Positions 108 through 62,348 are shown, counted from the first letter of the stretch. The stretch is 64,000 nucleotides of DNA from Chiloscyllium plagiosum (GCF_004010195.1 NC_057755.1:5997474-6061473), one strand, 5' to 3'. Program-made: numbers and translations. The notes: generated by a model not told the origin, from the letters alone.

Positions 108-981
108 TTATGAAACCAGAGATATACAGACGTTCTTGATTTTCTCTGTAAACTTGAACTGAGTTACTGCATAAATACATTTGTTTGTGCAGCAACTTAA
201 ATTCCGCAACATGATTCTGAAATTTCCAAGTATTATTTTAGATTCAGTGTAATCTATAACTCCAGTAGAGGAAAGAAAGGAGTTTATTACAAATATTAAA
301 CATAGAACTATGAAACTACCAGATATGGGTGTCCTCTAAAATGGCCGCCTTCCTTCTGCTTTCCATCTCTGTGTTTTTTGTGTTTCTAACCACTTCTTTG
401 AGCCTTCAACTCCTTATGGACTCTGCTGGATGCTAAAATGTGTCTGACAGTCAAAGCAGTGATCAACGGAATTAGAGCAAATGGAAGAAGTGGGTTTACA
501 GCTTTAGCAAAATAATCATATCCAAACCATCTGCGATCAGTATTACAACTTGGTTTTGCAGAACAAAACCATGGTACATTGTTAACTATCTTCTAGGGCT
601 CATAATTAAAATAGATGGGAACATTTTTCAGGCGAAGCAGAATGCAGGTTGTTGAAAGCACCACAGCTGCAATTTTCTCTGTGCAAAACAGTGCTCTTAT
701 TTTATGGCAACAAACAGCTGCAAATTGATCAAAAGAGAAAGCCATGGTGAACCGAACAGAGAAATCTATGACTGTATCAAACAATGCATTGTGGACACTA
801 CATGCAGGAGTGATGTCGAGGAAAAATTCTGGAGTTTCATAATAATAAACAACTTTTCTCAACATGACTTCAAGTATAATGACCAGAAGTTTTGCCATTG
901 CCATCGCCACGGGATAGTGAATTGTGCACTTTTAAATGCCACAATATCCACGGGATAGAATCATAACTGCCAGAAAAATAG
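108..981 (-). pseudogene. GPR139-like class A GPCR pseudogene (copy 1), exon 2
   Basis: Acceptor cag at 982-984, then (A)IFLAVMILSRGYCGI*; TAA at 932-934 and TAG at 593-595. ORF 593..910 has AMAKLLV and FSFDQFAAVC (degraded DRF). The 3' part reads LSCCTNKCIYAVTQFKF..*. Closely parallels 41839..42710. Confidence 0.93.
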
Positions 982-2239
982 CTGCTTGTGAAACAAAGGA
1001 AAAGACGATGGAAGTTAATCAGCAAACGTCTTTTTTATCTGACACGGTCAGTATAGAAATGTCGAAGCAATCTTAAGGTTTTTGCAGCTGTGAAATGTGA
1101 AATTTTCGATGCCAAAGCTAAAATGACTTCAGAATTACCAGGTTTTCAGGTAGCGGAGAGGTGTTGATTCCTCAAATACATGTGCCTTGTCTTGATCAGT
1201 GTCTGATTGAGATTGGGGAGAGTGCAGGCTAACACTCGAGTCATTATTTGAATTTTCAGAGATACAGTCACCTCTTAATCTGTTTGATCCTGATGGAATT
1301 GTTTCTCATTTAAAACTGAACTTCTTCACGGACTCCTGAGGGAATTAAGCTTTTTCTCCTTAAGCCTACACTCAATACCACTGTTCCTAGCATTACTGCC
1401 CAGTCATGGTTCACTCCTCTCTACATTTCGTACACAACTCCGAATCAGATGTTTTCCCTGAATGGATGGCTTTTCGCCTTCTTTCGATGCAACAGGTCTT
1501 TTCTAGTTATCAATCATGTGTCTCCATCCTCTGCCAGCATGAATGCCTGTGTGAGCTCATGAAATTGGAAAGAGGAGGAGGTGGTCCGGCCATTCGAACC
1601 TGAGTTATGTTCATGGCGATTCGAATTATCTCTAATTCCGTTCTAGCCCTAATCGCCAGTTACTCATTTATACAGCAGAATCAATCTAACTGTCTGAAAA
1701 AGACTGCATTCCTCTCCTTTTAGTGTATTTACAGCAAGAGAGTATACCAGACTAACGTTGAGATGAAAATTAGTGTTCTTCTCTATCTTGCATGCGTTTG
1801 GTCTTACACCTCGAAGAAGCCCCGTGCTATTGTGACTCCCACAAGATGAAAATATCCTTCCATTTGCAAAGTACCATCAGCATAACGTTCATCGTTTCCA
1901 TAACTTGTTTTCCCAAGATTTAGAAGGCAGACTAAATTACAACGGAAAGAATATTAAAAACCTCTCTGGTAGTGGGGGAAAAGCCAATTTTTCCAACTAA
2001 AAATAAACCAGTTGTTCAGCCTGCATCCCCACCATTAACATGTCGATGCAACACACACTCCCATACACCCCTTAAATCCGCAATGGGCCTGTCAACAGGT
2101 GTGTTATCAAGGTAGTTTTAACCTCACTTGTATTCAGAACTGAACTCTGATTGGAGAGTTGTTTTTATTTTAATGAATGCTGAACTCCCTGCGTACATTT
2201 CTTTGTCTGCCCGATCCGAATTAATTTTAGGAGAGGCGA

Positions 2240-2560
2240 GAGCCGAGTGATATTATCTTCAGATAGTTAATCCAGAGACCCAGATAACGTTCTGGCCACC
2301 TGGGCTTGAATCCCATCACGGGAAGGTGATGGAATTTGATTTCAATCAAAATGTGGAATTAAGAATCGAATGATGACCATGAGCTGCTTGGCGCAAACCC
2401 ATCTGGTTGACTGATGTCCGATAGGGAAGGAAGCTGCTGTCCTCACATTGTCTGGCCTACATGTGACCTCAGACCCAAGAAACGTGGTTGACTCTCAACT
2501 ACCCTCTTGGAATAAGTACTGGCTGGCCAACGACTCCCTAATTCTTTGAATGAATAAAGA
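2240..2560 (+). mobile_element. tRNA-related SINE-like interspersed repeat
   Basis: B-box-like ggcttgaatccc near the 5' end; body aaacccatctggtt..gatgtcc..agggaagg is shared with 24150-24380; ends in gaataaa. Confidence 0.5.
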
Positions 2561-3479
2561 GAAACTGTTCATAATCTGCGTAAAATTAACTTAGAGTTTG
2601 GCGACAGCAAAACAAAATGGAAAGATGCTTCCATGTGGCTCCAGACCACACAGGAGTATGGCAGTGATGCAAACTGATTTGAAGTTCTAAGACTCAAATA
2701 GCACGCTGTGGCAAATATCGACCATGTTCACCATTATGGTGACGTGGGAGAGCTAGAATCTGCTAATGATCCAGCATTGGAAAGATGGCACCTGTCAGAC
2801 TGTGGAGGAGAAATGACAGTCCTGTATTTGAAAATGTTAAGCAATCGAAATGGACTGCTGATGAATACTTTTCCTACTGCTGATAAAATCTTATGTCTTA
2901 TGAAAAAGAAATTAGCGTTCAGAGAAGGAATTGCTCAAGGTCTTATTGAATGTTCGCGAAAGCAAAAATGCCTGAATGCATCCTCCTATTCGTATATTTT
3001 TAAGTTCAATGTTTTACCAATGTCGCAAAAGATGAAACACTCAAAATGGCAATTGGATTATCAAATGATAATTATTCTGCAGTAAGTCAAAAATTAAGTG
3101 ATGTGTCACAGTTTTTTACTTTGTCAATTGCTCCTTTTCGGTAACATGGTTAACACATCAGTACTTCTGTTACATTTCATACACTGCCCTTATACGGAAA
3201 GAATCACCACCCGTTCAACATAATTTTGTGCTTTGATGTCTTCCATGCATAATTTTTAAAAGTCAGATCACTCTCATACCTCTTCCATAAGATACTGCTG
3301 CAGATGAGGGTCCTGCAACTTCAGATATACTTAAATGTACGCAAACAAATATTAGCAGGTGCTATGAAATTGAGACAGAATTTGATGGAGAATCTCAGCA
3401 GATCTGCGAGCATGTGTGGAGAGAGCAGAAAAGATAAGCAAGACACATTGGAGTGTAGTCACTCGAGTTTAGAAGAATA

Positions 3480-5215: not shown

Positions 5216-5538
5216 TACTCTTTTTAAAAGGACATGACGTAATGTGGTAATTGCCAAAACTATTGCAATTTCTCATTTCGATTTCTACATGAAACGAGAC
5301 AGAACAGGCCATCTCATTATTCCGAAAGTTGCAGAATTAACCCATGGAGGCAATTGCTGCAAAGGGTGGGTCAGGTTAAGGCTGTTTGTGAAGCACATAT
5401 GCTCGGTGAAACTTCAAGATTTCTTTCTTGGCCTCATGTCTTTGTAGTATTAATTTTCACCCTCTACCTCTTGATTCCCAGTGCATGAAAATGAAGAGAT
5501 TAATTTTTATTGGTATGTGTAAGGAATGACTCTTTATG

Positions 5539-5612
5539 AAAAATCCACGATAGGTCAGTGAAGCCATGAATCGTCATTAAAAATCCACGACAGGTCAGTG
5601 AAAGCCATGAGT
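5539..5612. repeat. ~40-bp tandem duplication
   Basis: aaaaatccacgataggtcagtgaagccatga followed by aaaaatccacgacaggtcagtgaaagccatga. Confidence 0.9.
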
Positions 5613-6134
5613 CTACATGAAAAGTTAACTACTTATTTTAAACAACTGCACAACGGAAGAATATAGAAAGAAGCATGCAACAGAATAGCACAGAACTGTA
5701 GACTAAAATGTGGGTTATTTCATAATTGAACTAAATTCATTACTTCCAGAGTGAAAACATGCCTTATAACAAATATAAATAGATGGAGATTCACAAAAGG
5801 ACAACAGCACTGCACACAACAGTACGCAACAATGAACATAAATCTACAGGAATTGATGTTGCCAATTGTCTTCTTCAGAATGGTCATGACCTCCCTTCTA
5901 ACAGTGCACAGTTTTACACAAAAGTTAGTAAATCATTGTCAGAAAGCATTTGAGCTTCCAGCAGTGGTTAACTATCATCTGAAGAGGTAAAATGAAATTA
6001 CCGAGACAAATCATCTCATTTGATCCAACAACTGACTGCTTGATGTACAGTGTGTATAGTTGTGATCAAAATGTAGCATTATCAAGCGCAGTGTAACATG
6101 CATGCATAGATGTTCGATTATTATTCTCACTTAT

Positions 6135-6210
6135 AAAGTAGGCCAACTATAGCACGGATCACGTAGTACACATTTTTTAAGGCCGTACTTTTAAAAAGTC
6201 AGTTCTACGT
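6135..6210 (-). pseudogene. Degenerate exon 1 of GPCR copy 1
   Basis: Reverse strand reads ACG TAG..AAA AAT GTG TAC TAC GTG ATC CGT GCT ATA GTT GGC CTA CTT T|ataagt. Homologous to exon 1 at 48997..49069, including the flank cgatta..attctcactta. Start ATG>ACG; donor GT>AT. Confidence 0.85.
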
Positions 6211-6810
6211 TAACATGTGTCGCTTTATAATGTCATTAAACCCTTTTCATTGTATTCTCTGGGGATAAAACCCCACGACCATTCATTTATCCTTTGTCAA
6301 ATTTCCATGGCTATATTGTACTTACAATAAATTGTGGCCAATTGTGAGCCCCAGGCTGTTTACACTCGTGAAAGTTGAAATATTATTTCGCTTATGTTTC
6401 GCAGCTGTGGTAGGTGATGTCAATGTCATGTTTTCCAATGACAGCAAGAATAAACAATTTATGACTTTGCGTTGCATTCCATCTGACTGAAGTGGCACAC
6501 TGTGCAGAGACACGACTGCACACTCTGACGAAGGGAAAAGAAACATTGAAATTATAGACCAACTGTGTTGTCAACTCCAGCATCACAGACATTAATTTAT
6601 TTGTGATTGTTTCTGACATGCCCTTCATTGACATTCAATTGATAGTTTGTGATAATACATATGCTGTCGTTCACACACTTGTAATAAATCGGTCACAAAT
6701 AACAATGTCAAAACGGTCGTATAAATCCATGTTCTTAATTAATGGAAGAACGCATCCGAACCATCAGCGCAACCACAATGTTGAAGTTATAAATGAAGCG
6801 ACTTGAAAAA

Positions 6811-7227
6811 TTAGATTAGATTACTTACAGTGTGGAAACAGGCCCTTCGGCCTAACAAGTCCACACCGACCCGCCAAAGCGCAAACCACCCAGACACATT
6901 CCCCTCCACCTAACACAAGGGCTTTTGCCCGAAAGGTCGATTTCGAAGCTCCTCGGAAGCTCCTGAATTGCTGTGCTCTTCCAGCACCACTGATCCAGAA
7001 TCTGGTTTCCAGCATCTGCAGTCATTGTTTTTACTACGGGAAATTTAGCCTGGCCAATTCACCTAACCTGCACATTTTTTTGGATTGTGGGAGAAGACCG
7101 GAGCAAACCCACACAGACACGGGGCAAATGTGCAAACTCCACACAGAGAGTCACCTGGGGTGGGAATTGAATCCGGGTCTCGGTCGCTGTGAGACAGCAG
7201 TGCCAACCATGTGCCACCGTGCCACCC
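6811..7227 (-). mobile_element. HE1-type tRNA-derived SINE, interrupted by a PLE-derived insert at 6918-7034
   Basis: Reverse strand has an A-box-like tggcacatggttgg, a B-box ggattcaattcc, a CR1-like tail gaagggcctgtttccacactg and a (tctaa)n end. Confidence 0.88.
6918..7034 (+). mobile_element. PLE-derived short element carrying the 3' half of a hammerhead motif
   Basis: gggcttttgccc GAAA ggtc gat..gctcctcgg..ttccagcaccac; same family as 33403-33588 and 63820-63912. It splits the SINE sequence taacac|tacggg. Confidence 0.75.
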
Positions 7228-7235
7228 AGTTTCCA

Positions 7236-7470
7236 GCAATGAGCTGCAAGAGCTTGTACACTGTGGAAAGATTGCAATTAATTGCCACTATTTGTATACT
7301 GTAGAAAGATGGCAATGCGCCGCCAGCGTTTGCACAATGCAGGACGATAGTAATGAGCTGGCAGGATTTGTACACAGTAGAACGATGGCAATGAGCTGTC
7401 AGTTTTGTGAACTGTAGAACGATGGCAATAAGCTGCCAGTGTTTGTACATTGCAGAACGATGGCAATGCG
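7236..7470. repeat. Minisatellite, ~38-bp unit, ~6 copies
   Basis: Consensus approximately actgtagaacgatggcaatgagctgccagtgtttgtac, with diverged units. Confidence 0.9.
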
Positions 7471-10299
7471 GTTTCAGAATTGATAAAATAAATATATTTA
7501 AGGATTGCAAACGTATTTCCTTTCATCGCTTCTTGAGCAACATTTGGCGACAATTCATATGCATTCCTACTGAACTCACTTTTATTGTTATGTTCCTTAG
7601 AACACCTGATGCAACTCCCATTCACTTCCTCCCATGATTACGTTTATCCCATGTTCATACAGAAACTCTAACAGCGTGTGAAATGAAATGAAATTGACTG
7701 ACTGAGACCAGACAGTGGTTTCTCACTGAGAATAACTGCACTTTTGACGAGACACTAGTTTCATGCCCTGATCTGAATTGAACTTCGTTTGCACGTTATC
7801 GATTGTTGCCGGCTAGATCTTGATATGGACGTGAAGTTGATTTCTTTCAACTCACTGAAAAAATCTGCACTTATTTGAATTCTCTGCTGTTTTCTACTTC
7901 TTCAAAATAATGTTAAAAATGCCCGATTGAGCATAACGACACTCCAGAAAAAATGCAATTTCAAAATAATTATACTATATTTAATGACAGTTCATGAAAT
8001 GCATTCAGAACCATTATGCACTGATGGTTATTCTCAAGTACAAGCACAGCGTGATAAGGTCTCCTAATCCCATTGTGTACCGTCTTTATAGATCTGTATG
8101 AATATATCCCACAGAATGTCACGCCTCAGTAATTCTATGTCAGTTGTTGTCCGCTTCAACACTACAGGACATTGCACTTAAGAAGGTAAATCAATGTTGG
8201 AAAGTTTGTGAGCAACAAATAGCGGTTTATCAGTACTAAGAGGACGAACAAACGTTCGGAGACAAAACAAGACATTTGAAAAAACTAGTGATTGTCTATA
8301 GTGATCACCACGTAGTATTATCAGACACGATTTAAAAATTTAAAGTTCTGAAACGTTTATATTCATTTGCAGGGCAGACGAAGGATAGCATGGAGCATGT
8401 AGTACAATTTCTGGATTTCCTCCTCAAGAAATATCTTTCTTGAATTAACAGTGGGTCTCATTGTTGTGCAAGTAACCATTCCGTTTTCAGTTCTTTGCTG
8501 ATCAAATCGCAATACCACGGACTGACACCTTGGTAAGGTTGTATTGGTGATATCCCACTTGCAACATTGCTTAACATTATGTTCTACACTTTTCTTTAAA
8601 AAAAAAGACAGTAAATGGAATGTGAACTGCAATAATCTCCCTTTCATTTCGTCGAGACTTGGCACTCAGCCTCAATAGCACCACTTCAATCAACGTTAGA
8701 ATAGAATAATAAAGAACACATTGAAGCTGCACACTTACAGTATCAATTCCAGCATCACAGATTCAAGCATATAACTGCATATGTTCCCAGATCCTTCCGT
8801 GAATGAGAACATTTGTGCTTTGCATTGTCATTTTAAATGGGCACTCGTACGGCTATTTTCATTCTCTCTGAAGTAAATCTGCCACAGACAACTGTGAATA
8901 ATCGGTTCAATTAAGATAGCCACTTCATTCAGAGAAACACAAAACTGTTACAAATTAGAATGTGGGCATTAGGCTCAGTGTGCTTTTTAAAATTGTCCAT
9001 TCTAATCTTATTAATGCCAATAACAGTACAACATTACGACAGCAGTCTTCAAACTGCCATAATGGCAGTCTACGATAGAAATTTAAGCAAGAGTGAAGAC
9101 GAAAATGTAACTTAATTGAGAGTAAAATACGTGATTGCGCCTTCCATGTTTATATACTGTACTTACTTTATTACAAAAATATAATTTATTAATTTAAAAA
9201 TTCTTTATGTGCACACATAAACACTCAAACGTTTCAGTTCTGCAAAGTAGCAAAAGAAAACTGGACAAACGTTGAAGGTGGACTGAATCCAACCAAACAA
9301 ACATTGTGCAAGATAATATTTGCATTTTTTATATTCTATTTTAACTTAACTTTGATTTTAGTTGCACTGTGAAATATTTTTGGCTGTTCAATACCACTGA
9401 AATTTCATACATTTTTATCTTGAAACGTTTGCCGAAACTAATATGAATAATATCGGCTTATTTAATTTACATTCTCAAGAAGTGATTTTAACAAACATTC
9501 CAAGCCCATATGTGGGTGAAAGAGGATATGTGTTTCATTCATTCACAAAGCTTTTCCATACAAATGGTGGATGAGCGAACTCCTGTCCAATCAGTGCAAT
9601 GTAGTTCAGGATGAATATGCCAGACAGCCAAATAATAATTCCTGGTGGAGTGCAGTTCCCTGAATAATCCTTACAGAGGGAAGGACTGACAGATGGACCA
9701 TGTATCAGAATAGTGGGATGACATTGCGATAAATGTAATGAAATGTTTTCTGTAGAACTGTTATATTGGAGATTGATGATGTACAGGCAGAGCTGGCGAT
9801 GGCAAGGAATAAACTCACAGAGAGCTGTGTGTCTGATTTATTGGTGATAGATCGTTGCATTGGATGACGGCTGACTGATATCACTTCAAAAGTAGTGTTG
9901 CAAAAATGCTCAACGACATCGAATGGAAAGAAACTATTACAGAGGCAGAGAATGGTGTCACTACAAATGCACTTTAGATTAATGGTAATGAATTGACTCC
10001 TGAATATTTCTATCATATATGACTTTTCTTTGATGTTCATTCGGAGCTCATCTGAAAAAGGTCTAAATTGCACTTGTACAGGAGTGAATATTTCGAATGT
10101 TTATCATCCTAAACAATACGAAGTGCACACAATTTCCTTCCATCCCATCAATATCTATTTGCAATGCCAGCAAAACTTTTACCATGGTTTGATGCACTTC
10201 ATTAAGAGGTCAAGTAAAAATCTCGCATTTACTGGCTACAAACATTGTGGCACAGCTGTTGCATTCTCAGATTTATATGTTATTCATTCATTGTGTAAA

Positions 10300-15811: not shown

Positions 15812-16716
15812 TTAATTTAATGGCGAATGTGATCTCAAATCGAGAAAAGTGTGATCTCTCAAATTACATCACTTTCTACCTGCAGGCCATGGCATTGGCA
15901 GATCTACTTTACATTATGACTGAGGAAATTCTGTGGCGGATCAGTCATTATTTCGCAAGTTGTCTTCTGGACATTACTCCAGTATTCAGTATTATCAACG
16001 TCCTGATTAGGGTAGCCACTGATTATTGTGTATGGCTCACTGTCATTTTCTGTTTTGCTGGATTCGAAGCTGTTTGTTGCCAGAAATAGAAAACAAACTT
16101 TTCTACAGATAAAAGTGAAGTGGAAATTCTAATGACAGCCAGTATTCTATTCTATTTAAAGAACATTCCAAATTATTTCACATTTGAACCTCGATTAGTC
16201 ACTGAACATGTTCAATGGTTCTGTGATGTAAAACCAGAGTACTTTATTCAGCCTGGATGGGTAGGATTCGATCAGTTTGTTGTAGTCTTAACTCAATTTT
16301 TCCAATTTATTTTTATTCTCTTACTCAATACTCTTACAGTTAGACACATTTTAGTGGCTAGTCGCGCCTGAAAGGGATTGATGGGTCAGCGCAAGAGAAT
16401 GAGTTATAGTGACTCAGAGATAGAGAGCAGAAGAAAGTCTGTGATTTTGCTCTTCACAGTATCGGGCAGTTTCATTCTTCTGTGGCTGAAGTATGTTGCA
16501 GAATTTTTATGTTATAATATTGCAGTAACGGATCCCAACGATTACACAGATTCAGAAAACACTTTTGAAAATGTTGGTGATATGCTTCAGAAGTTGAGCC
16601 GCTGCACAAACACATTTATTTACGGGGTGCATCAGTCTAAGTTTAGAGAAGAGTTAACAACGTTGGTGAAAATTCAAATTGCATTAGTCAATAAACTGAT
16701 TCATAAACAAAACTGA
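15812..16716 (+). pseudogene. GPR139-like GPCR pseudogene (copy 3), exon 2
   Basis: Acceptor ttgtag|TT AAT TTA ATG GCG. A single frame is broken by TAG 16087-16089 and TGA 16369-16371. Motifs QAMALADLL, ITPV, WFC, ESRRKSVILLFTVSGSFILLW, CTNTFIYGV; DRF decayed to AGF. Exon 1 not confidently found. Confidence 0.93.
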
Positions 16717-21195: not shown

Positions 21196-21351
21196 AGTGC
21201 CATATTTGGAACAATGACTCTAAGCTGAGAGCAAAATATTTCTGGGCACGTTCTGGGTTTAATTGGATGTCGTAATCTCTACGTTAACTACCGGCAAGAA
21301 GTTAAACTTGCGATGTCGCAACTACTATGTGCCCCTGGCAATTCTGCGGGG

Positions 21352-21357
21352 TATAAA
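21352..21357 (+). promoter_or_regulatory. TATA box of intact GPCR gene A
   Basis: TATAAA begins 95 nt upstream of the exon-1 ATG and is conserved in the inverted paralog (62438-62443). Confidence 0.65.
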
Positions 21358-21446: not shown

Positions 21447-21510
21447 ATGTCAATATTTTCTATGATCAGGAAAGTCTATTACCTGATGCTTGCCATTATT
21501 GGTGTTCCAA
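21447..21510 (+). CDS. Intact GPR139-like GPCR gene A (copy 4), exon 1: MSIFSMIRKVYYLMLAIIGVP, phase-1 donor
   Basis: ATG TCA ATA..GGT GTT CCA A|gtaagt. The 64 nt join in frame to exon 2 (A|TT = Ile), completing TM1 GVPINLL. Not in the ORF track. Confidence 0.9.
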
Positions 21511-23023: not shown

Positions 23024-23931
23024 TTAATTTATTGGCAATTGCCATTCTATCCCGAGGAAAATGTGGCCTATCTTCATGCACCACACGCTATCTGATAGCA
23101 ATGGCAGTAGCCGATCTCCTGGTCGTGGTAAATGAGTTCATACTGAGACAAATCAATCATTATTATTTTCATGTATCTTACTTGAACATCACTCCTGTGT
23201 GCAGTATAATCTATGTGCTGACTCGTGCAGCCAGAGACTGTTCAGTCTGGTTCACTGTCACTTTTTCCTTTGATCGATTTGTTGCCATTTGTATCCAGAA
23301 GTTCAAAACTAAATATTGCAAAGCGAAAATTGCCACTCTGGTTCTGTCAACAACTTGCATTCTGCTCTGCGTCAAGAATATCCCTTTCTATGTGACATTT
23401 CAACCTCGAAAGATCATTAACAACGTCCCATGGTTCTGTGAGATAAAGTCAAGTTATTACACTGAACCTGCTTGGAAAGGATTTGACTGGTTTGATGCCG
23501 TTTTATGCCCACTGCTCCCATTTGTTTTAATTCTGTTATTCAATGCTCTGATGGTCAGGTATATTTTAGTGGCTAGTCGTGTCCGTAAGGGACTGAAGGA
23601 CCAGAGTAAAGGTGAGAATCAAAATGACCCAGAAATGGAGAGCAGAAGAAGGTCTATGATTATACTTTTCTCCATATCTGGCAGCTTCATTCTCCTGTGG
23701 TTAATATTTGTTCTATTCTTCATACACTATTACATTGCAGGAACAAATCCCAACTATTATACTGGTTCTGTACATATCTTCCTACACGTTGGGCTTATGT
23801 TGGTGGGTTTAAGTTGCTGCACAAACACATTTATTTATGTAGTGACACAGTCCAAGTTCAGAACACAGTTCAAAAATGCGTTGAAATATCCAATTAAATT
23901 ATTGACATTCTTCGTTAATAAAGAGAACTAG
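23024..23931 (+). CDS. Intact GPR139-like GPCR gene A (copy 4), exon 2; spliced protein 323 aa
   Basis: Polypyrimidine tract plus cag|TT AAT TTA, open to TAG. Hydrophobic TM segments with AMAVADLL (TM2), TPVC (C3.25), FSFDRFVAIC, PWFC (ECL2 Cys), LLPF..LFN (TM5), SGSFILLW (TM6), CCTNTFIY (TM7). Family assigned by recalled motif similarity to GPR139/142. Confidence 0.95.
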
Positions 23932-26499: not shown

Positions 26500-27310
26500 T
26501 GATGTTGGTACATGATTTGGAGATGAGTGCTCAGGATAAAAGCTCGTAATTTGCAAATGACACGAAGCTGGGGAGAACGGTAAAGTATGACAATGATGAT
26601 GATCGAACTCAGAGGGACATTGACAAGTTGGCAATATTGGCAAACACTTTGCACATGAAATTGAATGCAGAGAAATGTGAGGTATTATACTTCGAAGAAG
26701 AATCTCGGAGAGACAATGCAGATTGAAAGGTACAAAAATTGAGGAGCAGAGTAGACTTGGAAGTCACATGCATGATTCACAGAGAGTCCCCAATTTCACA
26801 AAGTGAAACACATATTAAGAAGGCTAACTTTATAACTAAAGACGCAGCGTATATAAAGCAAGGAAGTGATTCCATTCTTCTACAAATCATTGGCCACACG
26901 ACGGTTGAAGTGTTGTGCTTAGTTCTGGTCACATTATCTAAGGACGCATATTAAAGTCCTGGAGCTATTTTAAATGACATTCAACAGAATTAAGCCATGA
27001 ATGAGGGATTTCAGAAAAGTGGGGAGATCGCAGAGATTGGACTTATTTTCCTTGGAAGAGAGAAGATTAAGAAGAGACTTTACAGAGTTGTTCACCATTG
27101 TAAGCAATTTTGACAGGGTAAAGAAATATAATTTGTTTCCAACAGTTGGTATGTCAGTAAGTAGGGATCACAGTTTCAGGAATGCAAGCAAGAGAGCTGG
27201 GATTGAGATGAGAAGGAACTTCTTTATTCAAGATTTGTTAGGATTTGGAATGTGCTGCCTTCCAAAGCCACAACCATACACCTGGAAGGGCAAGGACTCC
27301 AGGTACATGG
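26500..27310 (+). mobile_element. CR1-like LINE 3' fragment, old
   Basis: ORF 27001 LDLFSLEERRLRRDFTELFTI; an RT-end-like motif upstream (tttgcaaatgacacgaag). Confidence 0.75.
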
Positions 27311-32914: not shown

Positions 32915-32954
32915 CCAGACGTTTCATTACCTGGCTAGGTAACATCATCAGTGG
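32915..32954 (-). ncRNA. Minimal type I hammerhead ribozyme in the PLE pLTR, core intact
   Basis: Reverse strand: cca CUGAUGA u guuaccu agcc agguaau GAAA cg UC ugg. Stem I cca/ugg, 7-bp stem II, palindromic ACGU stem III. Predicted cut between 32918 and 32917. Confidence 0.8.
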
Positions 32955-35434: not shown

Positions 35435-36469
35435 TTATAATTCTTCGAACGTCTTGAAAACAGTGTCCAAAAAATCTTTAACTGCCTTCTTCAGCTCTTC
35501 TCTGAATTTCTTCCGGGTCCCTGCTTAAACGGAAAATGTTCGGGAAAGAATGCAAAAGCTTCAAAAAATTCTCAGTCTCAGTGACGATATATCCTGATTG
35601 GTGCAATCACATCAGTAAAAAGAGCTAACGGCCGCCATCAGCCGCAGTATGATGAAGTTGCCCAATACAGTGACGAATAAAATTATGTATTTCTTTTTGT
35701 TGTGCATCGCTGGGTCTTGATGATTCTCCCCGTTTAGACCTGTCAGTTTTCTGCGGGCTAGCTCCCAACAAAAATGCGTTCGATTGTCAATGAGTTAAAC
35801 AATGTGATGAACGTGAAGAGAAGCCAGACCACGAGACAACATAAAATCAAGCGTAGACTGGTGGTGAGGAAATGAAACCTCCACTTGCGCTGCAACCACA
35901 ATGCATCTTGTTGATTTGTTGCTGTTTTTCTAATGCAAAGAAAAATGGAATATTCCTTAATCAGTTCATAACAGAGAACATTGTTGGAATGTGACTGCCA
36001 TTCCGCTGGTTCAATTGGTAGTTTTTCGAATTTTGATAGAGAACCTGTCAAATGTGAACGTGATGGTAAACCAGACAGACAAATGGATGTTACCATCAAT
36101 TAAGTTAAAAAAAAACTCTCAGATGGGAAAAGGGTTCAGTAATGGAAATTGAAAGTGAAGAATGAAAACCTGATACAATATCACACTCAAGAGCATAACC
36201 AGCAGACCTGCTATTGCCATGGTCACTATACAGACAGAGATCTACTTCGAAAGGCCCCCGTTTACTTTGTTAAGTATTATAATTGCGACAGGTTTCCTGT
36301 TAAAAAGAGAGCACAGAACTTCAACGACCTAATTGTTCATGCCATATAATGAAGATTAATTCGAATATTGCCATCGATCAGTTAATATTGCTCACTGTCA
36401 ACACCAAAGGCAGAAGAATCGAGAAGCAAATTGTTTTCTTTTAATCAACGGAATAACTGGTTCTCCCAT
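35435..36469 (-). pseudogene. Divergent GPR139-like pseudogene (copy 5), exon 1 36396-36469 and exon 2 35435-36296
   Basis: Exon 1 ATG GGA GAA CCA GTT ATT..TTT GGT GTT GAC A|gtgag; 99-nt intron; aacag|GA AAC CTG..AIIILNK..GLSK*..MAIAGLLV; later LFNSLTIERIFVGS and AGTRKKFREELKK. Many frameshifts. Confidence 0.82.
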
Positions 36470-38195: not shown

Positions 38196-41100
38196 ATCCA
38201 TTTGACAGTGATGAAGTTTGAGATAGAACCCCAGAATGGGACGAGCTGAGCGGTTGTTTTGTGAGCCAATCCTGACATCAGGGGTGGAATGGTCCCTTTC
38301 GAATCTGTAACATTGTCTTATGCAGCAACAATGAAATTCCCCTATCATTAATGTTTTTGGATTATCACACTGTCTTGGGAAAACAAACAAAATAACCAAG
38401 ACCTCTTCCACTCTATTTGCATTTACTTCTGTCGGGCAGAAGATACAAAGGTGTCTAAACAGAAACTAACAGATATGAGAGTATCTTCTTCCGAACTGTT
38501 ACTGGACATTGGAACTGATCTTTCATATACTTGATAATTTGTCTCTCCACCTTCAGTTTTGCTGAAACACGAAATACAGCAGTCTGCTGTATTACGCTGA
38601 TGAATTGATGTATTGTATCATTTATCTGGATGTAACACAAAATAATATTTTTTCACTGTATCTCGATCGATGTGATAAAAATAACTCAAATCAAATCGAA
38701 CTACTCAACTGACCTCGTGATGGAATAATGCTTATCTTCAATTGAAATGACAATCCTGTTTGAATATTCACTGAGTAGAACATATACTGGAACTGATAGT
38801 GTCTATATGAAGCTCTGAATAACAATAATACTTAAACATTAAAACAGGTTTCCCGATCTATATACAATATTAGTATCAGTACATACGTGTGTTATGCTTT
38901 TTTTTTTGCGGTGGTGATAAGTATTTTACTTGAGGAGAATGAATTGAATGTATTGGGTATACACGTCTGCAATGCCAACAATGTCCTGGGAACATTTTTG
39001 AAGCAAGGAACTCGCACATAGCTGCGCCAAAATTCAAAGCACGAGGCTGTGCTCGAGATTTACTTTTTTTAAAAAATGAATGATTTTATCCATATGCTGT
39101 AGTCCTTCCTTTGCCTTTTCGATGAGATGATTGTTCAGGCCAATACTGAATTATTGGTGCATAATATAAGGAGGATTCCCAAAAACAAGACAACATTTAT
39201 GTCAATGTTGCAATTTTTCTTCCTGGAGCAATTTCTGCTTCCATGTTCCAAATTTCATTCGCTTTGTGCTGCGCATCTGCGTCTAAACTATTTAACTCTT
39301 CCCTCATCCCCTCTTTGACCATTGGAAGGTGACTATTCATTTGATCAGTGCCAAGAATTAAACCATGTTTAATTTCCTGTTCCTCTTCCCAGCTACATCC
39401 CTTTTCCCTCACCGTTGCGTGACGAATTAGACAAATCAGATTCTTGTTTTAAAAGTTGAAATGCACCCCCAAAATACTATTTCCTGTGTCAGTTCAGAGA
39501 TTACATCAATTTCTGCTTTGGTGAAGGACATCTTTTCTCTTTCCAAAGCTGATGACAAAGTTCCAAATATTTAATAAATCATGCAGTTTGTTGAATTCCA
39601 CGATAGGGAAATTGTTGCCTGTGTTAATACGACGCCCCATCATTGTGCAACGAATCCTTTGGAGTTCAGTTTCATGGCGATAAATCCGAGAGCTCCTGGC
39701 TGATACTTTATGAGATTTCTTTGGGAATATTGCATTTGCAGTATTGATCAAAATTGTGACATGGGGTACTTACTGACATATATAAAAAGATATTCCCAGG
39801 AAAGTCTTCCATCAGTAACTCTACATAAGTAGTTGCTTACTTCAAACATTGAAACACATTGCATACAAAGTAGAAAACCAATGGCACAGAAACTGGGAGC
39901 AACAATCAAACGTGTATTGTTTCCTAAGAGGTCGAACAATATTTCAGTGACAAATCAATACATCAGTGGTAACAAATGGAAGACCGACAAGATCACCATA
40001 TAATATTCTCACACAGTTTAAAATGAAACTGGCCTGTTGTGTGCATTTGCAGTTTCCGGAACTCCTGCATATGAGAAAGTTATTCCTGTACTAATAATGT
40101 GTCCTGTCATTGTGCAAGGATTCTGTCAGCTTCCAGTTCTGTGGCGCGAAAGTCGCCAAGCCAATCATAAATAACTTGTGAGATTTATTTGAGAAGTTTG
40201 AGCTTGCAGCATTTATCAGCATTAGGTTTTCATTGTTTTTTTTTTATAACAAGAGAATACAACAGTGACATAGATTAATTCCCGTGACATTCGGTCTGTA
40301 CTTGGTACTCAGCCTCAAAAGCACAACTATAATAAACGTTAAAAGACAAAACGCCTTGAAGCTGTACTGTCACAACAATGGTTTTGCTGAGTCGAACATC
40401 ACAGACTCAACGATAGAAGTACTCCATGTTCCCAGGTTCAATTGTATCCTGTTTAATGTTTGCATTGTAATTTTGCATGGTCTCAGGTTTGGCGAGTTTT
40501 TGTTTTCTCTGGAATGGAATTGCAACGTGAAACTGTGGACAACTATAAATATAGAGAGGTAACTGACATAATAGTAAATGTGTTGCAACGTAGAATGAGG
40601 GCTTTTGACCTATATGCTATTTCATTGCACGTTATCAACTTAATCGTGGCAGCAATAAGACAACATTCCGAGACCAGTTCTCCAAGATGCTGCAATTATA
40701 ACGTATGAACGAAGTACAAGTGAGAGTGAAGACAAAAATATGACTTGACTGAATGGAAAGACGTTCATTGCATTTATATACTCAGTATTAGTATCTTACA
40801 TTAACTGCATATTGTAGTTAGGTTGAACTGTGAAGCGTTCTCGATTTTTCAATACGCTTTCAGTTACATGCATGGTCACCTTATAATAATTGCAGACAAT
40901 TGTACAAAATATGACAACCCATTTAATTATTATTCTCAAGAGAGGACTGTACCGGTGTATCGGTTAATGTGTGTATATATATCTTTCGATATGCTCAACA
41001 ATTTTCCAAACAAATAATTCAAATACGAAGTCTTGTCCAATCATGGCAGTGCTGTACACGAGGGATACACCAATCAGCCAAGTCATGTTTCATGATGTAA

Positions 41101-41838: not shown

Positions 41839-42710
41839 TTAAGTGACCAGAGTTTGAAAAGCTTTCTTGATTTTCTCCCTGAACTTGGACTGAGTCGCAG
41901 CATAAATAAATGTGTTTGTGCAACAACTTAAATGCTGGCACATGAATCCTAAATCTTGCAATATCACTATTGACTCGCTGTAATCTGTTCCCCCAAGTGT
42001 ATAACGAAAGAAATTTAAAACAAACATAAACCACAGAAGTATGAAGCTACCCGAAATTGTGAAAAGTAAAATGACAGACTTCTTCCTGCTTTCCATCTCC
42101 GGATCGGTCTTTTTCTCTCCATTCCTGCGGGTTTTCAATTCCTTACGGACTCGGCTGGATGCTAAAATGTATCTTACAGTCAAAGCGTTTATCAACAGTA
42201 ATAGAGCGAATGGGAGCAGTGGGGTTAAAATCTGACGAAAGCTGTCATAGCCCACCCATACAGGATCAGTATAAAAGTTCTCTTTTACAAAACAAAACCA
42301 GGGCATATTTTCAACAATTGTCCAAGGCACATAAATAAAGTACATGGGGATGTTTTTGAAACAAAGCAGAATGCAGGTTGTTGAAAGCACGACAGCTGCA
42401 GTTTTCTCTGTGCAAAATCGTGCTCTCAGTTTATGGCAACAAACAGCTACAAATCGATCAAATGAGAAAGCGATAGTGAACCAGACAGAACAGTCTATGA
42501 CTGCATAACACAAGGTATAGTGAACACTACATACAGGAGTGATGTTCAGGAAGAACGGTGATGCTTGGTAATAATAAATAACATATCTCAATATGACCTC
42601 AAATATCACGACGAGAAGATCCGCCAATGCCATAGCCAACATGTAACGAGTGGTGCACTTTGAAATGCCACAATGTCCACGGGAGAGAATCAGAATTGCC
42701 AGTAAATTAA
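41839..42710 (-). CDS. Intact GPR139-like GPCR gene B (copy 6), exon 2; spliced protein 314 aa
   Basis: tacag|TT AAT TTA CTG GCA..NLLAILILSRGHCGISKCTTRY continues in frame into ORF 41839..42642. Motifs AMALADLL, TPVC, FSFDRFVAVC, PWFC, DPEMESRKKS, SGSFILLW, CCTNTFIYA. Confidence 0.93.
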
Positions 42711-43684: not shown

Positions 43685-45417
43685 GACAGAAAATAGGGCC
43701 CCTCAAAGACCAGTAAGTGGGACTTTGCGTGGAGCCGCAGAAAATGGAGGTGATGTTAAATGAGTATTTTGCATCTGTATTTACTGCGGAAAAGGATATG
43801 TAAGATATAGACAGTAGGGAAATAGATCGTGACATGTTGCAAAATGTCCAGATTACCTAGCAGGAAGTGTTGGATGTATTCAAACGGGTAAAGATGGATA
43901 AATACCCTGGATCTGATTAGGTGTACCTGAGAACTCAGTGGGAAGCTCGAGAAGTGATTGCTGGGCCTCTTGTATCATCGATAGATGACGTGCCGGAAGA
44001 GCGGAGGTTGGCAAAGTTGGTGTCACTGTTTAAGAAGGGTGGTAAGGACAAGCCAGAGAACGATAGACAAGTGAGCCTGACGTCGGTGGTGGTCAAGTTG
44101 TTGGAGAGAATCCTGAGGAACAAGATGTACATGTATTTGGTAAAGCAAGGACTGATTATGGACAGTGAACATGGCTTTGCGCGCGGGAAATCATGTCTCA
44201 CAAACTTGATTGAGATTTTGAGGGATTAACAAAGAGGATTGATGATGGCAGAACGGTAGATCTGATCTATATGAACTTCAGTGAGACGTTCGACAAGGTT
44301 CCCCATAGGACATTGGTTAGCAAGATTAGATCACATAGAATAAATGGAAAACCAGCCAATTGGATACAGAACTGTCTCTAAGGTAGAACTCAGAGGGTGG
44401 GATGGAGGGCTGTTTTTCAGACTGGTGGCCTGTGGACAGTAGAGTGCTGCAAGGATCGCTGCCGTGTCCTCTGCTTTTTGTCATTTACATTAAAAATTTG
44501 GATGCGATCATAAGAGGCACAGTTAGGATACTTGCAAATGATGTCAAAATGCGATGTGTAGTGAACAGCAAAGAGGGTTACCTCAGATTACAACAGGATC
44601 TTGACCCGATGGGCTAATGGGCTGAGAAGTGGCAGATGGAGTTTAATTCAGATAAATGCGAGACGCTGCATTTTGGGAAAGCAAAACTTAGCAGGACATA
44701 TACACTTAATAGTAATGTCCTAGGCAATGTTGCTGAATAGAGAGACCTTGAAGTTCAGGTTCGTAGCTCTTTTAACGTGGAGTCTCCGTTAGATAGGATA
44801 GTGAAGAAGGCGTTTGGTATGTTTTCTTTTATTGAGTACAACAATTGGGAGGTCATGTTGCGGCTGTACAGGACATTGGTTATGCCACTGTTGGAATATT
44901 GTGTGCAATTCTGGTCTCCTTCCTATCGGAAAGGTGTTGTGAAACTTGAAAGCTTGCAGAAAAGATTTATAAGGATGTTGCCAGTGTTGGAGGATTTGAG
45001 CTATGAGCAGAGGCTGAACAGGCTGGGGCTGTTTTCCCTGGAGCATCGAAGGCTGAGAGGTGACCTTATAGAATTATATAAAATTATGAAGGTCATGGAT
45101 AGTATAACTAAACAAAGCATTTTCCCTGGGGTGGGGGAGTCCAGAACTAGAGTGCATAGGTGTAGGGTGAGAGGGGAAAGATAGAGAAGAGACCTACGGG
45201 GCAACATTTTCGTAGAGAGGATGTAACCTGTATGGAATGAGCTGCCAGATGAGATGGTGGAGGCTGGAACATTTGCAAAATTTAAGAGGCATATTGGCCG
45301 GGTGCTGGCAGGTGGGGCTAGATTGGTTTGGAATATCTGGTCGGCGTGGATGGGTTGGACCGAAGGGTCTGTTTCCATGCTGTGCATCTCTATGACTGTG
45401 ACTCTATGACTATGACT
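43685..45417 (+). mobile_element. 5'-truncated HER1/CR1 LINE with intact 3' end, in the intron of gene B
   Basis: RQVSLTS, HGFARGKSCLTNL, LEYCVQFWSP, RRLRGDLIE; 3' gaagggtctgtttccatgctg followed by ctatga/tgactc repeats. Same family as 30380-31490. Confidence 0.92.
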
Positions 45418-48996: not shown

Positions 48997-49069
48997 CAGG
49001 CACACCCACGGCAGCAAGGATCATGTAGTACACTTTCTTGAGCTCGTACATTTGAAGCAATTTCTGCAT
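48997..49069 (-). CDS. Gene B exon 1: MQKLLQMYELKKVYYMILAAVGVP, phase-1 donor
   Basis: ATG CAG AAA..GTG GGT GTG CCT G|gtaagt. The 73 nt join in frame (G|TT = Val) to 42710 across a 6286-nt intron. Same KVYY..GVP pattern as gene A exon 1. Confidence 0.9.
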
Positions 49070-49144: not shown

Positions 49145-49150
49145 TTTATA
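49145..49150 (-). promoter_or_regulatory. TATA box of gene B
   Basis: TATAAA on the minus strand, starting 81 nt upstream of the ATG; spacing similar to gene A. Confidence 0.6.
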
Positions 49151-49369
49151 CCTCATGAACTCTCCATAGAAATATTGTGCTTATGACAATTATCAACGTC
49201 ATGTTTTCCACGAACAAAACAAAGATAAACAGATTACAACAACCTGTCAGATTCCATTTCATTGACGTGACACGTCGCACACGCACACAATTACGCAACA
49301 ACGATAAAGGAAAATGATTAATTCGCAATCTCACAACAATAGTGTTTTCCACTCGAGCATCACAGATAC

Positions 49370-54214: not shown

Positions 54215-55115
54215 TTAACTTTATTCAAATTGTGAATCCGAATCGAGGCAATTATGGGCTCTCTAAATGCATCACTCACGATTTGTTGGCAATGTCTGCA
54301 GCAGATCCACTTCTCATCATCCTTAATGCCATTCGGAAACGAATTAAGAATGCTTATTTCCCAGTTACTTCTTATCCATCAGTCCTGTATGTATCTTGAG
54401 AGTTGTTCAATGCTTAGCAGCCCTGGACTGCTCAGTTTTTTCTTCACAGTTGCTTTCAGATTTGTTTGTTTGTCGCAATTTGTTGCCAGAAGCTTCGGGT
54501 GGGATATTGCAATAACAGAACTGCAGTTATGTTTATCGTAGTTGTGAGTGTGATCTGCTTTTTGCGGTCAACTGTTCGGTATTTTATATTAGCTACGCAA
54601 TTGTCATTACAGTGGCCTTAGTGTTGCAACATAATATCAGACTATTCCACATCATTATTTTGGAAAGTGAATAAACTGATTGACATTATAATTATACTGC
54701 GTCTTCCAATTCTGTTGATTTTGATATTCAATGCTTTAAATGTCAGGAAAATCATAAGAGCAGAACGCATCCGCTGTCGCCTTCAGAACCAGAGAAATGT
54801 ACAGAATCGTACTGATCGAGAGGTGTTAAATCGAGAAAATCCATCATCTTGGTCTTTGCGTTGTCTGATAATTTCATAGTATTCTGTATGACAGATGTGA
54901 TACGCTCTTTATTATGGCCGTAAGTAAACCATAATGACGAAGACAAGACTTTAAACGATCCAAAATTTATCTTTCAAGAAATTGGATTCATGCTACGGCT
55001 TCTGAATTCATGCACCAGCACCTGCATATGCGCTCTAACACAAACTAACATCCGTGAGGAGCTAAGCAATGAAGCAAAGTATCCATTTAATCAAATTGTT
55101 AAACGATGCAAATAA
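54215..55115 (+). pseudogene. Divergent GPR139-like pseudogene (copy 7), exon 2
   Basis: NFIQIVNPNRGNYGLSKCITHDLLAMSAADPLL..LPILLILIFNALNVRKII..GFMLRLLNSCTSTCICALTQTNIREEL..*. Frameshifts; acceptor AG>CG. Confidence 0.88.
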
Positions 55116-59391: not shown

Positions 59392-59818
59392 ACTACATGA
59401 ACCGCTCATCAACCATTTGGAATCGCATCCTGGTTTGTCGCTGCTATCAGCTTTTTTAAAGGATCATTAACGAAATGCCTGGGTCATGGATTAGGTCAAC
59501 ATATATTTGTCTCCCCATTTGTTCAGAGAGCAGAGAAACGTCGAACACATTGAAGTCATTTTTTCAGATGTGAAGGAGCTGCAAGAGAGAAGATGAATCG
59601 AAAACTACATGAACCGCTCATCAACCATTCGGAATCGCATCCTGGTTTGTCGCTGCTATCAGCTTTTTTAAAGGATCATTAACGAAATGCCTGGGTCATG
59701 GATTACGTCAACATATATTTGTCTCCCCATTTGTTCAGAGAGCAGAGAAAAGTCGAACACCTTGAAGTCATTTTTTTTTCAGATATGAAGGAGCTGCAAG
59801 AGAGAAGATGAATCGAAA
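59392..59818. repeat. Recent 212-bp tandem duplication
   Basis: actacatgaaccgctcatcaacc...gatgaatcgaaa at 59392 and again at 59604, with few substitutions and a poly-T length difference. Confidence 0.97.
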
Positions 59819-59860
59819 TTGCGCGTGTTCATAAAATTGACTCTTGTTTCTCGGTTGTTC

Positions 59861-60755
59861 CTAGTTCTCTTTATTAACTAACGGTGCCATATGTAACTGG
59901 ATATCTCAGCACAGGTTTGAACTAGTTTCTGAACTTGAACTGGGCCACTGCATAGAGAAATCTGTTTGTGCAGCAACTGAAAGTCACCAACATACGTCCA
60001 ACATGTAGGAAGATATACAGAACAAATATAATATTTGGGATTTGGGTCCTGCAATATAATACTCTATGAAGAATACAACAAATACTCACCACAGGAGTTT
60101 GACGCTGCAGGATATGGAGAAAAGTATAATCATGGACTTTCTTCTGCTCTCCATTTCTGCGCCATTTTGATTCTCACCTTTGCTCTGATCCTACAGTAGC
60201 TTATGGAATGACGAACCATTATACTATGTCTGACAGCATTGACTAACAGAATTAAAACAAATAGGACCAATGACAATAAAACGGCAACAAACAAGTCAAT
60301 CCTTTTCATGCAGTTTCGGTGGAAAATCTTGACTTGATCTCGCAGAACCACACGACATTGTTAATGGTCGTTCGAGTGTGAAATGTGTCAAAGAAGGGGA
60401 TATTGTTTACACAGAGCAGAATGCAATTGTTGGAAGACCAGAGAAGCAGTTTTCACTGTGCAATATTTTGATTTGAGCTTCTGTCTACAAATGGCCACAA
60501 ATCAATCAAAGGAAAAAGTGACAGTAAACCAGACTGAACAGTGCCTGGCTGTCTGACTCATCACATACATTACACTGCACACAGGAGTGCTCTTCAGATA
60601 ACATACAGGAAAACAATAATGATTGATTTATGTCTGTATGAACTCAGTTACAGCGACCAGAAGATCCGATATTACCATTGCTATCAGATAGCACGTGGTG
60701 CATGAAGATAGGCCATGTTTTCCACGGGATTGAATGACAATTTCCAGTAAATTAA
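59861..60755 (-). pseudogene. GPR139-like pseudogene (copy 8), exon 2; inverted paralog of gene A
   Basis: NLLEIVIQSRGKHGLSSCTTCYLIAMVISDLL..TEFIQT* (TAA 60628-60630), frameshifts, and the same terminal ..VNKEN* as gene A. Acceptor AG>AA. Confidence 0.95.
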
Positions 60756-62284
60756 TTGCATGAGGAAGAAATAAAGAAAACATAGTTACAAGTGAAACAT
60801 AAGCAATCAATCAAGTTACAACTCTACAGGAATGAAATTATCGTTGATGTAAAATCACCCATTTAAGTCGTCAAATCTCAGAGACCAGGTTGAGTCCAAA
60901 ATGCCAATAACTGAGGCTTACTGATTTTGGGTGTATCACATCACTGAGATTGGCAATTCTAACACAAGAAACTTTGCTGTACCTGGCATCTTATGAACTA
61001 GCACACTTGATATACCAGAAAAAGTTAGATACCTAAAATGCCATAACGTTAAGTGCATTACTTTATCCAATTATTCCTTTCTTCTAATGTATATCTCTCA
61101 ATGTTGACGTATTTGTTGCTCAATTGAATAGTCATCTAAATATCGACAGCTGCTTCAATTTTGAATCAACTTATCAAATTCCATGAAATTCAAGTTGTAG
61201 TTGAAAAGCTGTCTGACAGTCAGTGTTTTTAAAGGCAAAGTTGCATTTTCGTCTCATTGATGTATGCTGTTAGTAACAGTGGCATGTATACACTATGCAT
61301 TGCTCTTTTTAAAGACACAGTGGGCATTTTTACAATGATTTTATGGACCTCTTGATTATCTGGAATATTTGGTTGACTATCATACTCCTGATCCCACAGA
61401 TATTTATTCCTCTCTTGTTGCAGGTTCAACCACACACAACAATCCCAATACTACATTTGTAAAAGCAAAATATTTGTTGGCAGTCATCTGTCATCTTTAA
61501 CTTCATGCCCTTCCTCACGGAGGCTCAATAGCAGCAGCATATTCCATCCACGAGATATTTTGCTATAACTCACCCAGGCTGTTACGCAGCTCAGAAATTC
61601 ACCAAAGATCATCAGACAGAACTTTCCATACTCACGACCACTTCCATCTAAAATGTCAAGGGCATCAAATACTTGGGAACACCACCTCCAAGTTTCCCCT
61701 AAGGTACTCACAATTTAGAAAGAATTGATGATTTATAAGGGTCGCTGGGTCGAAATCCTGAATTTTCCTCTCCCGGAGCATTGTGGGTCAACCTCCAGCA
61801 CATGGCTTGCAGCGGTACAAGAAGGCGAATGACTGCCCATCTCTCAAGGGCTACCAGGTCCAGGCAATAAATGCTGGGATCAACCAACGGCATCAGCATT
61901 CCACCAATGAATAAAAAAAATCATTCCGGGCCTTGTGTATTGTAGCTCTGATTGAAACCCGAAACTTCTGTCCCTCTCCTAACTACTGGCTGTATACCAT
62001 CTCATCCATCCAAGTATGCATCAGCTATGTTGGTAAAGAAGAGGATTTCTACATCTTATTCGATCCCTTTCAAAATGTCCTGTGGCAGATTATTCACTTC
62101 CATGACTCTGTCATCAGGACAGAAACTTTTAATTTTAGAGTCTCTTCTGTCAGCAAAAATCCCTGTGCCTTTCTCCAATGTACAATTCGTTACACACGTT
62201 ATCTTGCTAATCTTCTTCCATACCACATAACAGAATGGCTTACTGAAAGAAAAGTTCATGCAACTCATGGTCACATTCACTTTC

Positions 62285-62348
62285 CTCGGACACCAGTGAT
62301 GGCAAGGATCAGGTCATAGACTTTCCTGACCACAGAAAATGTTTACAC
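62285..62348 (-). pseudogene. Degenerate exon 1 of copy 8
   Basis: GTG TAA ACA TTT TCT GTG GTC AGG AAA GTC TAT GAC CTG ATC CTT GCC ATC ACT GGT GTC CGA G|gaaagt. Same 64-nt length as gene A exon 1; start lost, stop in codon 2, donor GT>GA. Confidence 0.92.

Follow-up and report, generated by a model that had tools for sequence, protein, structure and literature searches.

An expanded family of GPR139-related receptors in sharks and rays: a candidate chemosensory repertoire

The window analysed here is a whole 64,000-nucleotide stretch of the Chiloscyllium plagiosum genome (GCF_004010195.1, NC_057755.1:5997474-6061473), and it carries part of an array of predicted class A (rhodopsin-like) G protein-coupled receptor (GPCR) genes. 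We report that these genes belong to an expanded shark and ray family, which most likely grew by local duplication and loss into several hundred paralogs. In our assessment, the family is rather probably an undescribed chemosensory receptor repertoire, with olfaction as the probable modality. A chemosensory role is the most likely because the family combines many members under purifying selection with one inner face, many different pockets, and a promoter in which an O/E (EBF)-like site stands near a TATA box.

A receptor family of several hundred loci

Within the window, tblastn and a profile hidden Markov model built from 83 shark homologs, run over six frames, found exactly eight copies of exon 2 (E 3e-22 to 6e-164). 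Two of them belong to intact two-exon class A genes, gene A (323 amino acids) and gene B (314 amino acids), whereas the other six are broken, with 1-8 stops, up to five frameshifts and, in one case, a truncation. The copies lie on both strands and share 22-69% protein identity. The initial annotation had described eight paralogs, two intact and six dead, in both orientations and at several levels of divergence, and the searches returned the same picture. Its statement that three quarters of the copies are dead applies to the window (6/8) and is not extended to the whole genome, where the searches score the top candidates only. The array extends past the window, since four more exon-1 relics were found and both 10-kb flanks hold further broken copies.

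Six different queries were submitted against the genome of the window, and each scored the best 103-131 of 5,354-8,906 first-look candidates. As a result, 720 family rows were obtained, which collapse to at least 516 distinct near-full-length loci, concentrated largely on a few small contigs of chromosome scale. At least 429 of the 516 carry no flagged stop, and 87 were flagged with a stop inside exon 2; rows were left unflagged if their stop fell in the part of the match that extended upstream into the intron. Contigs C1-C51 hold at least 392 loci (89 on contig C44, 80 on C46, and 57 on C37), the window's own 12.8-Mb contig holds at least 80, and small unplaced contigs may hold haplotype duplicates. 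All these counts are lower bounds because the last query still gave 74 new loci out of 103. Recapture estimates, which are rough as the samples are non-random, reach about 440 loci for C1-C51 and about 570 overall. The initial annotation would have given up its proposal of a diversified family at a low genome-wide copy number, from which the count differs by a wide margin. Additionally, 60 loci, chosen mostly among rows without a stop, were fetched; in 59 of them exon 2 is open and preceded by an AG acceptor, with nearly all core motifs kept, and an exon 1 with an ATG and a GT donor was found no more than 9.5 kb upstream in 45 of 58 loci (18/20 in the first set and 27/38 in the second).

Cartilaginous fishes have been described as relatively poor in GPCRs (PMC8455134). 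Whatever the function of the family, this view is contradicted because the chromosome-scale contigs (C1-C51) of one shark carry no fewer than 343 exon-2 loci that are free of a flagged stop.

With E values up to 0.001 accepted, the protein search yielded 2111 clusters. All of the 120 matches listed are from sharks and rays (77 from horn shark), and nearly all are automatically named 'probable GPR139'; the genes are already in RefSeq, wrongly named, and the family is hidden under this label. Twelve more distant representatives come from catsharks, bamboo, zebra and smoothhound sharks, a skate, and a stingray, with one unnamed. No chimaera sequence was present among the named family matches, and no search was aimed at chimaeras. 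Family proteins of the window's genome are 83-96% identical to whale, zebra and bamboo shark proteins, with gene A at 83% to whale shark XP_048476694.1. The initial annotation had suggested that the family may be lineage-specific; expansion by birth and death stands, but a narrow lineage does not, as the members are spread elasmobranch-wide.

In four database proteins (P0189, P0212, P0179, and P0122), a family member is fused with domains of sodium channel, integrin-alpha-X-like, TRIM or hemopexin type. These fusions are probably gene-model errors that hint at neighbouring genes. In supplementary file 5 of PMC8455134, orthogroup OG0000365 contains 157 PF00001 proteins from 12 of 37 taxa and no human gene, and it is an unconfirmed candidate for the shark family.

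Descent from a single-copy relative of GPR139

The true GPR139 of the shark genome, located with a degenerate motif, is a single locus on contig C21 (L003 807-1772, minus strand) that scores 527 bits to human GPR139. Family proteins score 36-42 bits to human GPR139, and gene A shares 23% identity with the shark's own GPR139. For comparison, GPR139 orthologs retain at least 70% identity to the human protein even in zebrafish (PMC7318219). One copy of a GPR142-like gene, probably GPR142 itself, lies on contig C24 (L005) and is a 56% paralog.

We built a tree of 43 sequences (LG+F+G4, ultrafast bootstrap) with eight invertebrate rows of protostome peptide receptors as outgroup, in which the GPR139/142 superfamily provided the only vertebrate class A receptors. 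The shark family was supported at 94, its grouping with an amphibian/sturgeon gene at 83, and the successive additions of the coelacanth clade, amphioxus, and GPR139/142 at 100, 97, and 99. A clade uniting the family with GPR139/142 was rejected by the approximately unbiased (AU) test (p 4e-6, with 5000 replicates, fewer than advised). The initial annotation had doubted that these receptors are GPR139 orthologs and had proposed a phylogeny with GPR139, GPR142 and invertebrate peptide receptors; in this tree the family falls outside the GPR139/142 clade, and orthology to GPR139 is refuted by the separate single-copy GPR139 locus, the AU test, and the 23% identity.

The nearest non-shark relative is a receptor with one cluster per species or group, found in 20 amphibian clusters and in sturgeon. 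Its position as sister is only moderately supported because the support varies between runs (0.96 in FastTree, 58 in a quick IQ-TREE run, and 83 in the bootstrap run). The next clade comprises coelacanth, ray-finned fishes, amphibians, reptiles, and one copy per shark, and it is followed by amphioxus. The best match of the amphibian receptor in the shark genome is a family member (37%), and the relation is therefore one-to-many, with one gene there and hundreds here. As judged from the sequences, the ancestor of the family was a gnathostome gene of the GPR139/142 superfamily that was present in single copy. Membership in the OR, TAAR, V1R or V2R families was rejected, as the only Pfam match is 7tm_1 and the nearest relatives are GPR139-like orphans and peptide receptors.

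The database names imply that the paralogs are GPR139 co-orthologs sensing L-Trp or L-Phe. Human GPR139 is indeed the best match in a profile search against solved structures (79.8 bits, the next being 59), and the intron position is shared: the phase-1 acceptor, which had been noted for the window copies within transmembrane helix (TM) 1, stands two bases before N1.50 in all four genes compared, GPR139 included. Against the co-ortholog explanation are the presence of the true GPR139 and the GPR142-like gene in the same genome, the AU test, and the residues needed for Trp/Phe, which never occur together in 136 family sequences; we regard it as very improbable.

Variable pockets on a conserved scaffold

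The assignment to class A agrees with Pfam 7tm_1 scores of 76 and 75 bits for genes A and B (cut-off 30.5) and with an AlphaFold model of a horn shark member, P0011. The model predicts a plain seven-helix receptor with a short N-terminus and a hairpin in extracellular loop 2 (ECL2), in which the seven helices are long, the predicted local distance difference test (pLDDT) is 85.8, and the TM-score to class A structures is 0.7. D2.50, D3.49, and R3.50 are present in 136/136 family sequences, C3.25 in 132, and W6.48 in 133, while NTxxY stands in place of NPxxY.

For the variability analysis, 19 pocket positions were chosen beforehand and residues were numbered from anchors. The pocket is the most variable part of the receptor (2.67 bits, n = 136), followed by the outer non-pocket positions (1.93) and the inner TM half (1.01). 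The single-copy relatives are reversed, with 0.13 vs 0.69 and 0.82 vs 0.97 bits for pocket vs inner half. Compared at equal TM identity (0.66), after 20 rows with damaged motifs were dropped, 109 seven-residue pocket signatures were counted in 116 family sequences, against 13 in 92 and 1 in 21 sequences of the single-copy relatives. The window genome's own loci display 47 signatures in 59.

The action of Trp and Phe on GPR139 needs pocket residues such as F3.33, R6.51, and N7.39 (PMC5430874). F3.33 occurs in 17, a basic residue at 6.51 in 6, and N7.39 in 3 of the 136 sequences, with no sequence holding all three, and from the GPR139 Trp/Phe pocket (F3.33, H5.43, W6.48, R6.51, N7.38/39) the family keeps only W6.48. 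The initial annotation had named amino acids or peptides as possible ligands; carrying the aromatic amino-acid ligand of GPR139 over to the family is not supported by these counts. D5.42 is found in 88/136 and R3.33 in 50/136 sequences, with both in 42. This pair may form an internal salt bridge or, by analogy with teleost TAARs, an amine/acid contact; D5.42 recalls the non-classical amine site of those receptors (PMC4695389), which is a lead only.

The ratio of non-synonymous to synonymous substitution rates (dN/dS) is 0.27 over 23 independent recent paralog pairs taken from 59 loci, with 0.38 (0.28-0.50) in the pocket and 0.20 in the inner helices, and it is 0.22 (0.13-0.31) between genes A and B. 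These values indicate purifying selection on the paralogs. Pocket divergence arose chiefly between the older subfamilies or while constraint was relaxed.

These data bear on the explanation that the paralogs are neuromodulatory receptors of brain or endocrine tissue for endogenous peptides, or a dosage-tolerated expansion of little sensory meaning. GPR139 is a brain receptor and GPR142 a pancreas and gut receptor (PMC7318219), the protostome relatives in the superfamily are peptide receptors for MIP/sex peptide, FMRFamide, and proctolin (PMC8514136), and repeat-rich arrays duplicate easily. However, hundreds of members at a dN/dS of 0.27, with nearly one pocket signature each, are unlike a single ligand or drift, and the single-copy relatives have the opposite pocket pattern. 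We hold this explanation to be improbable.

An O/E-like site above the TATA box

Reading 20 upstream regions showed a shared motif just above the TATA box. The published O/E core TCCCYNGRGA was found with at most two mismatches in 18/20 of these discovery promoters, whereas the strict pattern YCCCNNGGGR was found in 0/20, and the site is visible only with mismatches allowed. A further 27 promoters were found as a held-out set, from which one was dropped for too little upstream sequence. In the preset window, TCCCNNGGGA with at most two mismatches was present in 14 of the 26, compared with 1-7 for windows placed elsewhere and a mean of 2.9 for shuffles. In a later-chosen 50-base window, TCCCYNGRGA with at most two mismatches was present in 21/26 (dinucleotide shuffles: mean 5.9, maximum 13), and with one mismatch in 7/26 against a shuffle mean of 0.7. 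The site starts 21-23 bp above the TATA-like box in 21/27. The O/E-like site is conserved by itself, because the promoters otherwise align no better than shuffled sequence (0.36 vs 0.34). Homeodomain sites were mildly enriched (14/26 vs 8.5 shuffled, P 0.01), and the one single-copy control promoter that was found had three mismatches. The O/E-like site is a predicted EBF target. O/E, homeodomain, and TATA sites are enriched in 314 mouse odorant-receptor promoters (PMC3247239).

A sensory repertoire outside the nose, in trigeminal or dorsal-root neurons, skin, gill, gut, or solitary chemosensory cells, would be expected to have the same pocket and copy-number pattern. Such receptors would answer irritants, peptides, or metabolites in an MRGPR-like role, and EBF is used in other sensory neurons. 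MAS1/MRGPR genes are reported absent from cartilaginous fishes (PMC8455134), and shark OR and V2R-like genes are often expressed outside the nose (PMC11979771). We nevertheless judge this explanation unlikely, as it is for odorant-receptor promoters that O/E, homeodomain, and TATA sites have been documented in combination (PMC3247239), and a family of several hundred members is larger than MRGPR families (174 proteins over 19 taxa).

The promoter site is also compatible with immune receptors: EBF1 or a STAT-like factor would then drive leukocyte or B-cell sentinels that detect microbial peptides or metabolites. EBF1 is known as the early B-cell factor, birth-and-death evolution with variable pockets is also typical of immune receptors, and the mis-joined gene models set some members beside integrin-alpha-X-like and TRIM genes. 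On the other side, patterns for ETS, NF-kB, the interferon-stimulated response element, and the E-box were not enriched in the 20 promoters, and there is no positive selection among recent paralogs. The family is also unmentioned in one small supplement file of a nurse shark spleen single-nucleus study, which is a weak point. An immune family appears to us a poor prospect.

Chemosensory interpretation

Several features of a typical olfactory repertoire were found in the shark family: a large clustered family with birth and death, a diversified pocket on a conserved scaffold, and O/E with homeodomain sites near a TATA box. According to the olfactory proposal, this promoter would turn on each paralog in sensory neurons, each paralog would present a different pocket for small molecules or short peptides, and the conserved intracellular face would feed one shared G-protein pathway. 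The coupling might be to Gq/11, by analogy with GPR139, or to Go, as in shark olfactory neurons. The cell type, the sparse expression of one receptor per neuron, and the ligand class are what we infer from this scheme. The broader proposition, that sharks and rays evolved a further olfactory receptor family from a GPR139-related orphan through O/E-driven expression, independently of OR, TAAR, V1R, and V2R, is evenly balanced in our estimation.

Several observations weigh against an olfactory repertoire. B cells and many other neurons use EBF factors as well. The consensus leans to TCCCNNTGGAGA, so another factor may bind the promoter site. The 50-base window was chosen after the preset-window result (14/26) was known, and the promoter counts are not fully independent because paralogous promoters share ancestry. 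No site class was under positive selection in the 23 recent pairs, and only position 3.33 exceeded 1.5, a noisy value; a strong arms-race reading is weakened because the recent pairs show purifying selection throughout. Two single-cell runs of unstated tissues, sampled at 2% and 6%, gave 20 partial reads (88-95% identity) and 0 reads for gene A. A further run, guessed to be RNA, gave short matches to gene A at conserved motifs and a repeat, and a fourth consists of DNA of a relative; taken together, these reads point neither towards nor away from expression of gene A. In catshark, all olfactory neurons are described as microvillous, with Go and TRPC2, and served by V2Rs (PMC10116579). The top 50 genes given for a catshark olfactory library include no GPCR (PMC11979771), a weak point as V2Rs are absent too.

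The small number of known receptor genes is puzzling in sharks, whose olfactory organs are large and whose sense of smell is keen. The OR, TAAR, and V1R families each comprise 4-9 genes in these animals, V2Rs number about 34, and it 'remains to be seen' whether their odour space is restricted as a result (PMC10116579). In the catshark lamella, a V2R co-receptor probe labels about 6 neurons/mm and single V2R probes about 1 (PMC10116579). The passages of PMC10116579 and PMC11979771 that concern receptor genes treat four olfactory families only. If the olfactory proposal is true, elasmobranchs would have in the shark family their main odorant repertoire, with about ten times as many genes as the V2R set of catshark, and the view of the shark nose as running on a few dozen V2Rs would be wrong. 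The expansion is undescribed in the open-licence literature searched, and a prior mention in subscription papers, which were outside that scope, is possible. The family was not found in the supplements searched for whale shark, bamboo shark, nurse shark spleen, little skate, and catshark habenula, the last two in part.

Genes, relics and repeats of the window

On the plus strand, the coding part of gene A exon 1 (21447..21510) contains 21 codons plus one base, with the GT donor after ...IIGVP and that base. Exon 2 (23024..23931) follows an AG acceptor and runs from the second half of TM1 to the stop, and the spliced product of 323 amino acids is intact. Upstream, at the family-wide position, lies an O/E (EBF)-like site (21331..21341, plus strand), a motif match only, with two mismatches to TCCCNNGGGA, and a TATA box (TATAAA, 21352..21357, plus strand) stands 95 nt upstream of the ATG. 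On the minus strand, gene B comprises an intact exon 2 (41839..42710) and the coding part of exon 1 (48997..49069), which ends in a GT donor. The ATG at 49069 gives 314 amino acids and the one at 49051 gives 308. A degenerate O/E-like site with three mismatches to TCCCNNGGGA and a TATA box are found at 49145..49172 (minus strand).

Pseudogene C1 (exon 2 at 96..981, minus strand) is a paralog of gene B at 74% DNA identity with two stops and two frameshifts, and a decayed promoter/exon 1 relic at 6116..6313 (minus strand) is probably its own. A second relic of this kind lies at 8353..8548 (minus strand). Pseudogene C2 (10279..10623, minus strand) retains only the 3' third of exon 2, being 5'-truncated, with one stop. 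Pseudogene C3 (exon 2 at 15812..16713, plus strand) has two stops and has lost the DRF motif, and a search for its exon 1 relic found none. Pseudogene C5 (exon 2 at 35450..36295, minus strand) is heavily decayed, with eight stops and three frameshifts; upstream of it, on the minus strand, are two weak promoter/exon 1 relics at 39580-39727 and 40050-40183 (nhmmer E 5e-8 and 2e-9). Pseudogene C7 (exon 2 at 54215..55106, plus strand) belongs to a distant subfamily and has two stops, three frameshifts, and a mutated acceptor.

Pseudogene C8 (exon 2 at 59892..60755, minus strand) has six stops and five frameshifts, its splice donor and acceptor are both mutated, and in its exon 1 relic (62285..62348, minus strand) the start codon is mutated as well. 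C8 arose from gene A by an old inverted duplication and decayed early: 19975-26460 matches 63820-58420 in inverted orientation at 69-76% DNA identity, and the dN/dS between C8 and gene A is 0.73 (interval 0.49-1.15).

Decayed repeats resembling long interspersed nuclear elements, presumably of CR1 type, lie between the receptor copies (30381-31491, 43688-45297, and 26979-27260) and are possible substrates for unequal crossing-over. Inverted retroelement-like fragments without a Pfam match (32876-33383 vs 34896-34391, 90%) flank a palindrome at 33403-33554, and we take the frames at 32876-34896 to resemble Penelope-type elements. A 212-bp tandem duplication of 96% identity (59392-59818) and a 38-bp minisatellite of about six copies (7235-7468) were also found. 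A 1357-amino-acid reading frame was traced to an assembly gap.

Comparison with known receptor families

Like GPR139 and GPR142, the family has two exons with a phase-1 acceptor before N1.50, and in the alignment to human GPR139 it has N5.58 and no P7.50. Unlike them, it shares only 19-23% identity with these receptors and has hundreds of copies, against single-copy orthologs in the same genome. It has the TM3-ECL2 cysteines and mostly no P6.50, whereas GPR139 has no cysteine at 3.25.

The amphibian/sturgeon receptor, automatically named GPR139 (XP_069092602.1 of Pleurodeles, RXM35349.1 of Acipenser), is the sister of the family and shares its DPE(M/V)xxR(R/K)KS loop motif. In contrast to the family, it is single-copy and has an invariant pocket (F3.33, K6.51, and N7.39 in 21/21). 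In this receptor, an unstudied orphan (P0234 and relatives), N2.50 replaces D2.50 in 21/21. The ancestral ligand can be approached through the amphibian gene, as it is single-copy and its GPR139-like pocket is invariant.

The coelacanth-clade gene (XP_005988539.1) is the next relative after the amphibian sister (ultrafast bootstrap 100). Its single shark copy is L001 (contig C26:36599278-36603243; also L128). The clade keeps R6.51 in 92/92, with no mammal or bird among the 120 matches listed. GPR210A and GPR210B (PMC6504862) and the 'NMOGPR' and 'Orphan 139-like' groups (PMC5207463, Table 1) come from the same neighbourhood of the GPCR tree. The former are GPR139-like genes from coelacanth, gar, and fishes, and sharks go unmentioned in the main text passages of PMC6504862; the latter are unclear orphan families (PMC5207463). 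In contrast to the shark family, these groups are given in the passages of both papers for bony vertebrates only and with no expansion described.

Finally, the shark family is like the OR, TAAR, V1R-ORA, and V2R-OlfC families in forming large tandem arrays with pseudogenes and in setting a variable pocket on a conserved scaffold, and its promoters are like those of mouse ORs in having O/E, homeodomain, and TATA sites. Unlike these families, it has a different GPCR ancestry and a coding intron in TM1. It is far larger than the catshark set of 34 V2R and 4-9 OR, TAAR, and ORA genes (PMC10116579).

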